Positions 1-33,162 of a stretch of DNA of 33,162 bases are shown in pieces; the stretch's first letter is position 1, and each line of letters starts with the position of its first letter. A program made the position numbers and the translations under genes. Below the pieces are notes generated by a model. It saw nothing but the letters and a program-made list of their open reading frames with translations. It was not told where the DNA came from and did not search any database. The stretch is from Campylobacteraceae bacterium (GTDB lineage Bacteria; Campylobacterota; Campylobacteria; Campylobacterales; Sulfurovaceae), in assembly GCA_026986085.1 (NCBI GenBank), contig JALSPE010000111.1, forward strand, positions 1 through 33,162, in the 5' to 3' direction.

Positions 1-226
1 TATTTGTATCAATTATAGATAATTGCTTACTAGCACCATAATAAGTATTTAAGTATAAAAGTTAAATTTATACGCTAGATAATAAAAGTAATTTCAAACA
101 TACGGATACGAGAATTTATTCGCGTCTATTTGAGATAAAAAGTTAAATTAATCTATTGTCTCGAATAAATTTGAGGGTCCAAAAAGAAGAGCTATAAACT
201 TTACTTTAAAAGCTCTTATTTATTAG
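1..226 (+). repeat. Intergenic repeat family, copy A (R half; truncated by window start)
   Basis: Aligns by hand with 32685-32913 in the same orientation. The core 101-214 vs 32787-32900 is 98/114 identical. Contains hairpin 105-126 (GATACGAGAATTTATTCGCGTC) and hairpin 160-175 (CTCGAATAAATTTGAG). No ORF. Lies directly 3' of the ABC-F gene. Confidence 0.85.
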
Positions 227-265
227 CTAATACAAAAGAAAAATCAAAGAGATATTTTCAAAAAA

Positions 266-3530: not shown

Positions 3531-4339
3531 TGTTAATAACAAAAGCCCTGCTTTGGGGGCAAAAAGAGTTAAAAGATATAGTTGAGCGCCCAAGATTAGA
3601 GGTTGAGATACTACTATCTTTTATGCTAAATTGTCGTCGCGAAGATTTAATATTAAAACAGATTGAAGATATCGATTTTGATATATTTAAAGAGTTAATT
3701 AATAGACGAAAAAATCTTGAGCCAATAGAGTATATTACCAATAGCGTAAGTTTTTATAAGTATAATTTTTTTATAAACAAAGGTGCTTTGATACCTCGCC
3801 CAGAGAGTGAAATATTGGTAGAGAAGGCAATTGGATTAATAAAAAAGCACAATATCAAAAGTGTAGCAGAGATAGGTGTAGGAAGTGGAGTTTTAAGCAT
3901 ATCTATTGCTAAAGAGTGTGATGTTGAAATAGAGGCTAGTGATATATCCAAAGAGGCGATAGAGGTTGCCAAAAAAAATATAGAAAAATTTAAATTAGAA
4001 GATAAAATAGTTATAAAAAATTGCTCAATGCTTGATTGCTTAGATACTCCAGAGCTTTTAATTAGCAATCCTCCATATATTGACCCAGAGTTTAAATTAG
4101 AAAAAAATATTTTAGATTACGAACCCCATTGCGCACTATTTGCACCAAAGGGTGGTGTTGAGATTTTACATAATATTTTAGATATTATTAAAGAAAAGAG
4201 AATAAAATACGCTGTATGCGAAATGGGGTATGACCAAAGAGAGTCTATTAAAGAGTATATTTTAAAAATTAATTTAGATAGAGAGATTAGTTTTTATAAA
4301 GATATATCAGGGCATGATAGAGGTTTTGTGTTACATTAG
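3530..4339 (+). CDS. prmC: Peptide chain release factor N5-glutamine methyltransferase
   Basis: NPPY catalytic motif (ISNPPYI), SAM-binding EIGVGSG motif, HemK-type N-terminal helical domain. Its ATG overlaps the stop of the upstream gene. Confidence 0.88.
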   Translation: MLITKALLWGQKELKDIVERPRLEVEILLSFMLNCRREDLILKQIEDIDFDIFKELINRRKNLEPIEYITNSVSFYKYNFFINKGALIPRPESEILVEKAIGLIKKHNIKSVAEIGVGSGVLSISIAKECDVEIEASDISKEAIEVAKKNIEKFKLEDKIVIKNCSMLDCLDTPELLISNPPYIDPEFKLEKNILDYEPHCALFAPKGGVEILHNILDIIKEKRIKYAVCEMGYDQRESIKEYILKINLDREISFYKDISGHDRGFVLH

Positions 4340-5332: not shown

Positions 5333-6147
5333 CTTGGGCAATAGGCGATATACAAGGCTGTTTTGATAACTTTCAAAACCTTTTAACCAAGATAAACTTT
5401 GACCCAAATAGAGACAGGTTATGGCTTGTGGGTGATTTAGTAAATAGAGGCAACAAATCTTTAGAGGTTTTAGAGTATGTTTATGAGCATAGAGAGTCAA
5501 TAGATATAGTGCTTGGAAATCATGATATTAGTTTAATTGCTGCATATTTTGGATTAAAAAAGAGTAATCCAACTATAGAGCCAATTTTAAATTCTGCTAA
5601 GGCTGAGAGTTTGATAAATTGGCTTAGAAGTCAGCCATTTTTACATATTGATTACAATTTGGGTTATGCAATGGCTCATGCTGGAATTGCTCCAAATTTT
5701 CAATTAGGAGCTGCAAAGCACTATAATGATATTTTACAACAAAGATTAAACTCAAAAGAGGTAAAAGAGTGGTTAAAAATTATGCTTAGCAAAGAGACAG
5801 ATCATTTTGAGCCACATGGGCAAAATAGTGATATAGAGAGATATGCACTAAATAGCTTTATTAGAATGAGATATTGCTATAAAAATGGGTATTTAGATTT
5901 TAAACAAAAAGGCTCTCCTTATACTCTAAAAAGAGATGATTTATACCCTTGGTTTGATTGCCCTATAAAAGAGAAGAAAGAGTTAAAAATAGTTTTTGGT
6001 CACTGGTCCACTCTTGGGTTTTTAGATAGAGATGATATATTAGCATTAGATACGGGCTGTCTATGGGGTAGAGAATTGAGTGCTTATAATTTAGAAAGTA
6101 GAGAAAGAGTTTTTGTTAAATGTAAAGGGATAGATATTATAAAATAA
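5329..6147 (+). CDS. apaH: Bis(5'-nucleosyl)-tetraphosphatase, symmetrical
   Basis: Calcineurin-like metallophosphatase motifs GDIQGC, GDLVNRG, GNHD and GH..; ~270 aa ApaH architecture. 4-nt ATGA overlap with the upstream gene. Confidence 0.88.
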   Translation: MTWAIGDIQGCFDNFQNLLTKINFDPNRDRLWLVGDLVNRGNKSLEVLEYVYEHRESIDIVLGNHDISLIAAYFGLKKSNPTIEPILNSAKAESLINWLRSQPFLHIDYNLGYAMAHAGIAPNFQLGAAKHYNDILQQRLNSKEVKEWLKIMLSKETDHFEPHGQNSDIERYALNSFIRMRYCYKNGYLDFKQKGSPYTLKRDDLYPWFDCPIKEKKELKIVFGHWSTLGFLDRDDILALDTGCLWGRELSAYNLESRERVFVKCKGIDIIK

Positions 6148-6171
6148 CTTTTGCACTTAAATCATCTATAT

Positions 6172-6560
6172 AAGTTAGAGTTTTAAAAGTAAAGTATATT
6201 ACTCTTCTTTTTGGACACTCGAATTTATTCCTACCAATAAGCTTGAAATTAACTTTTTTGTTTAAATAGACGCTAATGAATTCGCCTGTCCATATTATTT
6301 GAAATTTGTTTTGTTACTTAGCATATAAATTTAACTTTACACTTAAAATATTATTTTATGATGCTAGTAAGCTACTATCTATATTTAATACAAAAATTAT
6401 CATGGCTCTTGACATTGTATATTTAAATTTTTAAATAATCTATTTATGGGATTTTAAAAAGTGAATAGTTTTTGTCAAGATATATGACAATTTTACATCA
6501 GATGCCACAATAGCACTGTTTAGTTTAAAATTTTAGTTAAAACTAGGTGTGAAAGTTAAG
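6172..6560 (-). repeat. Intergenic repeat family, copy B (full R+L, reverse orientation, most diverged)
   Basis: The reverse complement aligns with 32551-32913. The R half (6172-6395) directly follows the apaH stop. The L half (6395-6560) contains TTGACA 6409-6414 and the palindrome TTGTCA-N7-TGACAA 6472-6490. Both hairpins are partly degraded here (6269-6290, 6216-6235). Confidence 0.85.
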
Positions 6561-6595
6561 ATTATAAAATAGTAGAGTTTTTGCAAAAACTTGCA

Positions 6596-23569: not shown

Positions 23570-23602
23570 TATAACCTTTCCCCCTAATTCTAAGTAGTAT
23601 TA

Positions 23603-23624
23603 ACCCAAATTATGCAATAGAAAT
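23603..23624 (+). repeat. Solo copy of the terminal 22 nt of the 25160-25323 palindromic element
   Basis: ACCCAAATTATGCAATAGAAAT is identical to 25160-25181. No partner arm is nearby. Confidence 0.8.
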
Positions 23625-23627
23625 GTA

Positions 23628-23663
23628 TCAGCAAAACACGAATAAATTCGCGTGTCTGTTTTT
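23628..23663. terminator. Bidirectional rho-independent terminator between the convergent XRE-family gene and the fumarase beta gene
   Basis: Hairpin ACACGAATAAATTCGCGTGT (23636-23655) flanked by AAAA on the left and TGTTTTT on the right, so either strand reads stem-loop plus U-tract. It shares the CGAATAAATTCG core with the repeat-family hairpins. Confidence 0.65.
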
Positions 23664-25139: not shown

Positions 25140-25159
25140 ATTTTCTCCTAATTGATTTG

Positions 25160-25323
25160 ACCCAAATTATGCAATAGAAATCACCAAACTATCAATAGTC
25201 ATTGTGCCGTGGGCATTTACAAAAAATCATCGCCTAACCTTTGGGTTAAGCTCAAATTTTTTGCAAACACCCACAACACAAGCACTATCAATAATTTTGG
25301 CAATCCTATTGCATAATCTGGGT
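25160..25323 (-). repeat. ~165-nt imperfect palindrome (MITE/ERIC/Correia-like), predicted long RNA hairpin in the mdh-fumarase intergenic transcript
   Basis: Left arm 25160-25239 pairs with right arm 25244-25323. The outer 18 positions (25160-25177 with 25306-25323) are complementary except for one A/C mismatch. Across the arms, 12 A/C or C/A mismatches on the plus strand become G-U pairs on the minus strand, and there are none of the reverse type. Confidence 0.8.
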
Positions 25324-25364
25324 TTAAGGCTACAAGCTTTTTGCTTTTTTGCAATAAAAAATTT

Positions 25365-32396: not shown

Positions 32397-32550
32397 TAAA
32401 CTCTTCTATATAAAATATTTAAATGTAATTTTAGCCAATTTTATTAAATTATAGAAGTATTATAGATATTTTACTTAATTTGTAAATATAAATCATTTAA
32501 AATATACCATGCTGTGTGTCTTTACCAGAAGCATTTAATTTATTTATTAC

Positions 32551-32913
32551 CTTAACTTTTGCGCCTAATTTTAACTAAAATTTCAAAGTAAACAGTGGTA
32601 TTGTAGTATCTTTAAAAAATTGTCATATATCTTGATAAGAACTATTTATTTTTCAATATGCAATGTCAAGAGTTGTGATAACTTTTGTATTAAATATAGA
32701 TAATAGCTTGTGCTAACACCACAATATAATGATTTAAGTTAAAAAGTTAAATTCATACACTAAACAATAAAGCATATATCAAATAATACGGACACGCGAA
32801 TTAATTCGCGTCTATTTAGGTTAAAAAGTTTATTTGAGCTATTGCCTCGAATAAATTCGAGGGTCCGATAAGAAGAGAAATAAACTTTACTTTAAAAGCT
32901 TTAGTTTACTAGC
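32551..32913 (+). repeat. Intergenic repeat family, copy D (full L+R)
   Basis: L half 32551-32690 carries TGTCAA (TTGACA on the minus strand) at 32664-32669 and TTGTCA-N7-TGATAA at 32620-32638. R half 32690-32913 carries the perfect 16-nt palindrome CGCGAATTAATTCGCG at 32795-32810 and the 7-bp hairpin CCTCGAA-TAAA-TTCGAGG at 32845-32862. Confidence 0.88.
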
Positions 32914-32929
32914 ATTATGAAATATCGAT

Positions 32930-33029
32930 GATTTAAGTTAAAAAGTTAAATTCATACACTAAACAATAAAACATATATCAAATAATACGGACACGCGAAT
33001 TAATTCGCGTCTATTTAGGTTAAAAAGTT
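32930..33029 (+). repeat. Partial tandem duplicate of the R-half hairpin-1 module
   Basis: 99/100 identical to 32731-32830 (single G-to-A difference, 32772 vs 32971), offset 199 nt. Ends 6 nt before the stop codon of the rlpA-like gene. Confidence 0.95.
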
Positions 33030-33035
33030 AATTTA

Positions 33036-33162
33036 CTACTTCTTATAAAAATTTTTTGTATCTTTAACAATATCAATTTTTACCTTGGCTACACCACTTT
33101 TTATGAGTCCAATTTTTTTAGCAGCTAAATATGAGAGGTCCAAGACTCTACCTTTAACATAA
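33036..33162 (-). CDS. RlpA-like (double-psi beta-barrel) lipoprotein, C-terminal fragment; gene continues beyond window
   Basis: The minus-strand frame reads ..YVKGRVLDLSYLAAKKIGLIKSGVAKVKIDIVKDTKNFYKK*, matching the conserved GR..DLS..AA..LG....G...V C-terminus of RlpA family proteins. Only 41 codons are visible, and it is absent from the ORF track because it is partial. Confidence 0.5.
   Translation of the reverse strand, partial: YVKGRVLDLSYLAAKKIGLIKSGVAKVKIDIVKDTKNFYKK

Follow-up and report, generated by a model that had tools for sequence, protein, structure and literature searches.

The window, a stretch of 33,162 nucleotides (positions 1 to 33,162 of contig JALSPE010000111.1) from a Campylobacteraceae bacterium placed by GTDB in the Sulfurovaceae, holds similar sequences beside several unrelated genes, which raises the question of what these repeats are and by what means they were dispersed. 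An earlier note, made from the DNA alone, had described them as an ORF-less intergenic family of 360-390 bp with three copies and a partial tandem copy. It recognised no named repeat in them and offered a non-autonomous mobile element, a 3'UTR-derived sRNA family and a terminator/insulator cassette as candidates. The analysis presented here indicates that the repeats are probably BIME-like mosaics around a REP doublet (REPIN-type) of a REP-RAYT system in an uncultured Sulfurovaceae-like member of the Campylobacterota, which would place the family in a named kind after all, that of REP/REPIN/BIME sequences.

Repeat copies in the window

A degenerate 28-nt pattern of the repeat core matched the window four times, with 0.00 matches expected from shuffled sequences. 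A repeat finder returned the segments 43-227, 32729-32913 and 32928-33034 as direct families, all of them inverted relative to 6170-6568, and a five-way alignment of the copies showed clear homology. The three copies and the partial tandem copy claimed previously were all located, and the hand-counted identity of 98/114 between 101-214 and 32787-32900 was reproduced exactly. Window copies are 16-27% divergent from one another. They contain no ORF of at least 45 aa and no ORF common to the copies, the short ones differing from copy to copy. The adjoining genes are those named in the earlier note and encode an ABC-F protein (Uup/EttA-like), ApaH, a SlyD-type FKBP, MetX and the C-terminus of an RlpA-family protein. 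The features are listed below, where the REP doublet denotes a pair of palindromes (1 and 2), the T motif is a recurrent 17-nt sequence, and X, Y and L are further parts of the ~400-bp layout described in a later section.

1-265, minus strand: copy A, R unit only; left end degenerate, REP doublet present, internal T motif at 49-65, L module lacking
92-186, minus strand: core of copy A, REP doublet with palindrome 1 at 159-180 and palindrome 2 at 104-126
6136-6144: left flanking direct repeat of copy B, ATTATAAAA, which is the end of the apaH coding sequence
6145-6560, plus strand: copy B, full mosaic of ~416 bp with T-left end, X, REP doublet, Y, internal T motif, L module and T-right end
6208-6306, plus strand: core of copy B, REP doublet with palindrome 1 at 6213-6234 and palindrome 2 at 6269-6291
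6561-6569: right flanking direct repeat of copy B, ATTATAAAA
23635-23657, plus strand: solitary palindrome-2-like REP, AACACGAATAAATTCGCGTGTCT, between convergent genes
32542-32550: flanking direct repeat of D+C, reading GTAATAAAT on the minus strand, an 8/9 match to its partner
32551-33030, minus strand: D+C composite of 480 bp, the partial unit D (~32930-33030) followed by the full unit C (~32551-32950)
32552-32568, plus strand: T motif TTAACTTTyrCrCyTAA, 17 nt, at the right end of D+C
32775-32872, minus strand: core of copy C, REP doublet with palindrome 1 at 32845-32866 and palindrome 2 at 32790-32812
32989-33011, minus strand: palindrome 2 of partial unit D
33031-33039: flanking direct repeat of D+C, reading GTAGTAAAT on the minus strand and including the TAG stop (33036-33038) of the RlpA-family gene
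49-65 (minus), 6144-6160 (plus), 6543-6559 (minus), 32734-32750 (minus), 32933-32949 (minus) and 33015-33031 (minus): other T motifs

The bounds of these copies differ from those first proposed. Copy B spans 6145-6560, its first three bases being the apaH stop codon TAA, and the right-hand locus is a single D+C composite, so that an element drawn at 32551-32913 is too short on one side. Copy A had been regarded as truncated by the window. It is bounded by the ABC-F stop (266) and by napA, which lies beyond the window, and on a longer contig with the same locus (L002) the homology stops at about window position 1 and napA follows; copy A is not cut off by the window edge and has no L half. Unit D consists of a T motif, palindrome 2 and Y and stands in tandem to unit C with a 199-nt period. 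Its start is a T motif placed like the T motif of the doublet spacer, and D repeats a 199-nt sub-unit.

The conserved core and its distribution

Alignment of the metagenome matches described below reduced the part common to all copies to ~95 nt, not the whole ~400 bp. In the orientation of the upstream gene this core reads GGAC-CCTCGAATTTATTCGAGG - spacer - AAATA-GACGCGAATgAATTCGCGT-GTCC - GTATTGTTTGAAAT, in which palindrome 1 is CCTCGAATTTATTCGAGG after the GGAC head and palindrome 2 is GACGCGAATgAATTCGCGT before GTCC. Including their heads, the palindromes measure 22 nt and 23 nt, respectively, with stems of 7-8 bp and loops of 4 nt. The spacer between them is 31-36 nt long in 50 of the 54 cores and falls into at least three unrelated sequence types, and palindrome 1 is nearly invariant although it was absent from the search pattern. 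Since palindrome 2 and its GTCC tail, when reverse-complemented, match GGAC plus palindrome 1 at 17/22 positions, and since the core profile matches its own reverse strand, the core is an inverted doublet of two diverged palindromes with their heads facing outward. Some copies have GGAT in place of the GGAC head, and the GTAG that is canonical in classical REPs does not occur as a head. The unit of 360-390 bp is thereby superseded as the conserved entity: what is conserved and dispersed is the REP doublet, and the L half is a separate part found in either orientation.

Folding predictions give two alternatives, a pair of local hairpins closed by GGAC/GUCC and a single long doublet hairpin, the latter being predicted for copy B and for the transposase-bearing contig L012 described below. 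Intact copies fold with z = -2.4 to -4.4 against shuffled sequences. Within the window, copy C has the consensus palindrome 1 exactly, and its palindrome 2 is off at one variable loop base only. Copy B has changes at 5/22 positions of palindrome 1 and two changes in palindrome 2, and copy A carries stem-breaking substitutions in both palindromes and folds no better than shuffles (z = 0.07). What the stems of the 54 cores conserve is their sequence: almost every change breaks a pair, and one is compensatory. As read from the alignment, such a pattern agrees with a specific DNA sequence or hairpin being recognised and single copies decaying afterwards; an RNA maintained by selection on its structure does not fit it.

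We scanned metagenomes with palindrome 2 as the pattern, which returned 43 contigs: 41 real ones and two GC-rich chance matches. The 41 contigs are from AT-rich relatives, almost all in one JGI sample series (Ga0256833/40/41), and together with the window they hold the 54 distinct cores, none of which lies within a long ORF. With the core profile, nhmmer found ~65 strong copies in ~337 kb of these loci. The case of exclusively local copies, which the earlier note had entertained, does not apply to a core carried by 41 other contigs. A scan of species-representative genomes with the core pattern, the exact form of which was possibly too strict, gave one match, on a contig of a MAG labelled Nitratifractor. 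The palindrome-2 pattern had 0 matches in a viral contig collection, and BLAST of unit C found no match among plasmids and phages. The ApaH protein of the window shares 55-57% identity with the Sulfurovum and Nitratifractor proteins listed and at most 79% with the other proteins found. MAG GCA_054022415.1 and several further assemblies contain an identical apaH gene, on contigs of which many end within the repeat. The host is accordingly an uncultured, Sulfurovaceae-like member of the Campylobacterota.

Locations were counted on a simple ORF map. All window copies have the fixed orientation relative to the upstream gene that had been reported before; family-wide this rule is a tendency, with the upstream gene co-oriented with the core in 32/44 copies (binomial p = 0.004) and opposite in the other 12. 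For 28 copies two neighbours could be assigned: 17 pairs are convergent (3.7 expected from the loci's own intergenic spaces), 11 are tandem and none is divergent (p ~1e-12). A preference for unidirectional and convergent gene pairs is known for REPs (PMC3733652). The convergent and 3' bias corresponds to this distribution and is equally expected of purifying selection against promoter disruption.

A candidate transposase and the origin of the mosaics

A transposase gene was located by reading the ORFs that lie between pairs of cores. The 1.4-kb contig L012 contains a 170-aa ORF (192-704) with an HUH motif, MPNHIHILF (HIHIL), and a tyrosine motif, YNYIKYNA, which scores 46 bits against Pfam Y1_Tnp (cut-off 23). 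Its best NCBIfam match is the REP-associated tyrosine transposase (REP_Tyr_transpos) with 57 bits, followed by IS200 with 35 bits, the equivalog cut-off being 80. The ORF is bracketed on both sides by arrays of exactly the window palindromes in the order 2 - 1 - 2 - 1 - 2, with a 132-nt period. L012 stems from the same vent metagenome series, and its linkage to the window genome is putative.

The L012 transposase has 107 homologues at E <= 1e-5, including proteins of Lebetimonas and of three Sulfurimonas species. Their alignment shows the motifs FVTFRT, MPNHIHLLF, FW..YYDK.IRD and YNYIKNNP. The family consensus YIKNNP carries the class-2 'Y---NP' signature of RAYT-type enzymes (PMC6006769), compared with YIKYNA in L012, a change of NP to NA. 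When the family profile was run against solved structures, the best match was E. coli TnpA-REP (4ER8, 2.3e-8), only marginally ahead of IS200-type TnpA. At three homologous loci, one of them in the complete genome of Sulfurimonas hydrogeniphila, the transposase is flanked on both sides by palindrome arrays, again built from two unlike palindromes that are inverted to each other and have GGAAC or GGAAG heads on the outside; the S. hydrogeniphila locus has more than 20 further palindrome copies dispersed over 20 kb. The array architecture is constant across the transposase family and the palindrome sequence differs by locus. For each transposase to have its own palindrome within a shared architecture is a hallmark of REP-RAYT systems (PMC2817692, PMC3116915).

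By analogy with those systems, we infer that the repeats may be mobilised by a Y1 transposase acting on single-stranded DNA: an HUH/Y1 tyrosine enzyme would recognise the folded palindromes together with the head and disperse them. Copies would be retained at sites where they are nearly harmless, downstream of genes and most of all between convergent ones, and some, such as A and B, would then decay. In the window the doublet lies inside a larger mosaic of ~400 bp, in the order T motif, X, doublet, Y, T motif, L module and inverted T motif, and some copies of this mosaic appear to behave like single insertions, with inverted ends of 17 nt and direct repeats of 9 bp beside them. A tandem duplication of the 199-nt sub-unit gave rise to the partial tandem copy. 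Any role in forming transcript 3' ends or in stabilising mRNA, as is known for REPs, would be a secondary effect.

The mosaic itself was delineated by aligning the 12 most window-like copies. This added a part Z between the second T motif and the L module to the order given above, with an L module of ~250 bp and a T-like motif also within the doublet spacer. The T motif occurs seven times in the window (0.28 expected), always within the repeats, and lies near cores in other loci too. Inverted T motifs stand at the two ends of copy B, D+C and the units on L023, L025 and L030, with an arm identity of ~75-80%. Copy B is flanked by the exact 9-bp repeat ATTATAAAA on both sides (shared flank string 11 nt) and the L030 unit by the exact 9-bp repeat CTTAATAAG (shared flank string 12 nt); the flanks of D+C, GTAGTAAAT and GTAATAAAT, match at 8/9 positions. 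The null probability of a shared flank string of at least 9 nt is ~0.002. Such repeats are present in 3/6 units with both ends identified and absent from those on L023, L025 and L010. Removing copy B and one of its repeats restores an apaH gene that ends in ...AAA TAG, followed ~40 nt on by a hairpin shared with slyD. At least some mosaics appear to have inserted as discrete units. The modules also occur in other arrangements: other subfamilies have the L module on the opposite side of the core and in the opposite orientation, the assembly L059 has an L module bounded by the internal and right T motifs downstream of slyD and without a doublet, and copy B of L003 and L057 has another inverted-repeat element, 165 bp long, nested between its halves. 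The L module with its variable position and orientation, the R-only copy A, the doublet-free module of L059 and the nesting together identify the family as a BIME-like mosaic of modules.

We know of no target-site duplications made by RAYT/IS200-type chemistry, nor of a need for terminal inverted repeats in it. Because the inverted ends and 9-bp repeats are therefore not Y1 products, either a second mobilisation route, with a DDE transposase acting on the T-motif ends, or recombination between T motifs is needed in addition to the REP-RAYT system. The most serious alternative takes this further and regards the ~400-bp unit as an ordinary MITE: a DDE transposase supplied in trans would act on its 17-nt T-motif ends and leave 9-bp duplications, and the doublet would be cargo or a nested insertion. 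We consider this a real possibility, though one we would not bet on. The inverted ends of full units, the direct repeats at copy B, L030 and D+C with their low null probability, the precise removal of copy B that leaves an apaH ORF ending in TAG, the T-bounded module of L059 and the small inverted-repeat element nested in copy B of other strains all speak for this alternative. It does not account for a doublet core far more widespread than the 400-bp unit, for its three or more types of flank and spacer, for an L module that can face either way, or for T motifs that are also internal to the unit, even in the spacer between the palindromes. Half of the six units lack flanking repeats, and in the ~337 kb of loci no inward-facing pair of T motifs encloses a transposase ORF, as an autonomous IS with these ends would. 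A MITE would explain the window variant at most, not the family.

No pair of occupied and empty, otherwise identical sites was found. Relatives identified through ApaH at 73-79% identity (L050-L052) yielded no true empty site, the gene order downstream of apaH not being conserved; the repeat family is absent from their 35 kb, including the spacer downstream of ABC-F in L052. In exact-protein look-ups of metX and slyD the contigs of other samples diverge near or at module boundaries without a clean empty site, and that of ABC-F returned no record. Besides the lack of an occupied and empty pair and the units without flanking repeats, the REP-RAYT explanation has to accommodate a transposase on a separate contig of the vent series, its score below the NCBIfam cut-off (57 versus 80 bits) and NP to NA change, a GGAC head in place of GTAG, and the terminal inverted and direct repeats of the 400-bp unit, which point to the second route or to recombination. 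The REP-RAYT reading and the earlier note's first candidate, a non-autonomous mobile element, nevertheless agree with dozens of dispersed copies, a cognate-looking transposase flanked by the same palindromes, inverted ends and some direct repeats.

An unlikely alternative is a structured RNA family, that is, 3'UTR-derived sRNAs or bidirectional terminators and mRNA stabilisers kept by selection on RNA function and not by transposition. The strong bias to gene 3' ends and convergent intergenic regions, the stable hairpins predicted on both strands, the A-rich 5' and U-rich 3' flanks of palindrome 2 (GUAUUGUUUG) and the action of REPs on transcripts elsewhere (PMC3733652) would suit it. An Rfam search, proposed in the earlier note, matched no family: there were 0 matches at gathering threshold in the whole window, and permissive mode (E up to 10, both loci) produced only noise. 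A tRNA/tmRNA scan of the window found none. A terminator consensus scan found no terminator-like site within the elements, where palindrome 2 is followed by GTCCGTATTGTTTG and the T-rich tract begins 4-6 nt past the stem. Conservation of sequence and not covariation (one compensatory change in 54 cores), the degraded palindromes of copies A and B and the 12/44 copies opposite to their upstream gene further argue against RNA function, which on its own would leave the transposase-flanking arrays unexplained.

Promoter-like matches in the elements are not commoner than in shuffles, and a promoter-like site of metX, TTTACA-16-TATAAT, lies at 32486-32459, outside the element; the ~110 nt that hold it stay the same in a strain that has another neighbour upstream. 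Expression of metX can thus be explained without the L module, which was rejected as a promoter. The sRNA and terminator/insulator candidates accordingly gain no support as the primary identity of the family. A putative terminator upstream of the core (AGAGC...GCTCT plus a T-run) was also discarded, having a 4-5-bp AT-rich stem and a 17-nt loop and not being kept in copy C. Integron attC sites, dif/Xer sites and IS200/IS605 ends were considered from the sequence and dropped, since housekeeping genes surround the scattered loci, whose anatomy matches that of REP arrays. Finally, a recent segmental duplication confined to the 33-kb region, suggested by three loci within 33 kb and the tandem partial copy with its 199-nt period at 32930-33030, is refuted by the core on 41 other contigs and sits badly with 16-27% divergence and unrelated flanking genes.

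Comparison with known systems

The REP/REPIN-RAYT systems of Gammaproteobacteria, such as those of E. coli (TnpA-REP, 4ER8) and the REPINs of Pseudomonas fluorescens (Nunvar 2010, PMC2817692; Bertels & Rainey 2011, PMC3116915), resemble the window family in their short headed palindromes arranged as inverted doublets with a spacer, in their high copy number at extragenic sites mostly downstream of genes, and in an HUH/Y1 gene that is flanked by the same repeats and has its own palindrome in each homologue. They differ from it in the head, which here is GGAC (GGAAC/GGAAG in relatives) and not GTAG, in the two palindromes of the doublet, which here differ at 5/22 positions, and in the transposase, here a member of a clade of ~170-aa Campylobacterota proteins that score under the NCBIfam RAYT cut-off. 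It is chiefly in RAYT groups 2 and 3 of Gammaproteobacteria that a strong link to REPs has been documented (PMC5581495), and a Y1 subclass prevalent in Epsilonproteobacteria is listed without REPs (PMC6006769).

Enterobacterial BIMEs likewise alternate two REP types, use few recurring linkers, form tandem clusters of variable length and lie at gene 3' ends. Clustering of this kind is seen in the L012 array (132-nt period) and in D+C (199-nt period), with the T motif as a recurring linker. The linkers of the window family are much longer than those of BIMEs (L module ~250 bp), and some of its mosaics have inverted ends and direct repeats. In the latter respect they approach Correia/NEMIS and other MITEs, which are ORF-less, 100-500 bp long and gene-adjacent, have terminal inverted repeats between short duplications, can be nested and in some cases contain hairpins or promoter-like sequences. 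In contrast to these MITEs, the widely conserved part of the window family is an internal doublet tied to a Y1 transposase and not the ends, no matching autonomous IS was found in ~337 kb, and flanking duplications are present in half of the units.

Catalogues of REP-type repeats cover all proteobacterial divisions and include Sulfurovum sp. NBC37-1 (PMC3733652), and the CGTC-tagged repeats among them are reported to have no link to tyrosine transposase genes (Di Nocera et al. 2013, PMC3733652). Compared by description, the CGTC- and GTAG-tagged super-families are palindromic extragenic repeats with the same location bias, in a related genus; palindrome 2 of the window family starts with GACG, which is CGTC on the other strand. 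The two differ in that CGTC here overlaps the stem, palindrome 1 is without the tag, and the palindromes flank a Y1 transposase. A full-text literature search returned no paper combining RAYT or REPIN with Campylobacterota genera.

To our knowledge, work on REPIN-RAYT systems has been confined almost entirely to Gammaproteobacteria, in which they are discussed as intragenomic replicators that are long-lived and inherited vertically, and a dense system of similar structure in vent Campylobacterota would widen the taxonomic base for testing the persistence of such populations. The cultivable relative Sulfurimonas hydrogeniphila carries an analogous array-flanked transposase. Such a system would also make it possible to test how a Y1 transposase reads a pair of unlike palindromes, and whether these elements shape transcript 3' ends in AT-rich genomes with few canonical terminators. 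The repeats also fragment metagenome assemblies, many contigs ending within them, and are places where MAGs of this group are likely to hold chimeric joins or rearrangement breakpoints. More speculatively, and with the chances rather against it, deep-sea Campylobacterota (this lineage, Sulfurimonas, Lebetimonas and relatives) might harbour an undescribed REPIN-RAYT branch with a ~170-aa class-2 Y1 clade and dense populations of 'heterodimeric' REP doublets, in which the palindromes differ and the GGA(A)C heads face outward, fused in the present lineage with TIR-bounded modules into ~400-bp units that insert with 9-bp duplications; two different transposition chemistries would then operate on one mosaic. 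Set against the systems above, the window family follows the known logic of REPIN-RAYT and BIME elements, and what sets it apart is the GGAC head, the two unlike palindromes in each doublet, the small and apparently distinct transposase clade and the unusual embedding in TIR-bounded mosaics.

Copy B and an element nested within it

Insertion of copy B, the ~416-bp mosaic unit at 6145-6560 (+) between apaH and slyD, would have left the ApaH protein unchanged: the first three bases of the unit (6145-6147) form the TAA stop codon of apaH, and the reconstructed empty site would encode the same protein terminated by a TAG, which now lies at 6570-6572. A third small inverted-repeat element of ~165 bp with the ends GACTTCTT...AAGAAGTC was observed in four of the other contigs and loci compared with the window (indicated by L-numbers).

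Locations of the third inverted-repeat element
L003 4153-4317, third inverted-repeat element
L057 about 2250-2410, third inverted-repeat element
L028 13215-13359, third inverted-repeat element
L046 11737-11783, third inverted-repeat element

In other strains, copy B is interrupted by this element, with ...TTTAATA on one side of it and CAAAAATT on the other. The copy B of the window lacks the element, which is therefore an insertion polymorphism between strains.

Breakpoints at the repeats

Identical slyD genes in three assemblies are followed by three different downstream neighbours, namely apaH, a DnaJ-like gene and a 963-aa ORF (L057 2000-3030, L059 2000-3030), and homology 3' of slyD is lost at module boundaries of the repeat, i.e. 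at the internal T motif (a 17-nt motif also found at unit ends) or at the nested element. The differing neighbours may reflect true recombination at the repeats or chimeric contigs; in both cases, caution is due at these repeats in MAGs of this group. The stretch replacing apaH in L059 contains a short CACTAAT heptanucleotide microsatellite (about 2560-2600).

A further breakpoint is found ~50 nt past the right end of D+C, the composite of a partial and a full unit at 32551-33030 (-). When L056 1-400 (from another assembly, ERZ27262647) was compared with window positions 32500-33162, ~110 nt upstream of metX were identical, beyond which L056 changes to a different gene in divergent orientation. 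This switch is either a rearrangement beside the repeat or an assembly join.

In L049, the stretch CGAGGGTTCGAATCCCTCACTGTCCGCCA (about 4180-4215) resembles the 3' terminus of a tRNA gene; this putative tRNA end is directly followed by a T motif and the ~250-bp L module, and then by a core (REP doublet).

A second palindromic element

The window also contains a ~165-bp palindromic element unrelated to the REP-doublet family, with 80-nt arms (~74% complementary) and the ends ACCCAAATTATGCAATAGAAAT, which is flanked on both sides by genes on the - strand. Pieces of it are present at several further loci, and one end fragment adjoins the solitary REP at 23635-23657 (+).

Locations of the second palindromic element
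25155-25330, element in the window
23600-23624, fragment in the window
L026 255-420, near-full copy
L039 527-698, near-full copy

A related system in a cultivated species

A homologous Y1 transposase (an HUH enzyme) is encoded in the cultivated Sulfurimonas hydrogeniphila (CP035534, 1535209-1555718), where two palindromes with GGAAC/GGAAT heads occur in at least 20 copies, occupying nearly every intergenic space across 20 kb. The species would offer a tractable model of such systems.
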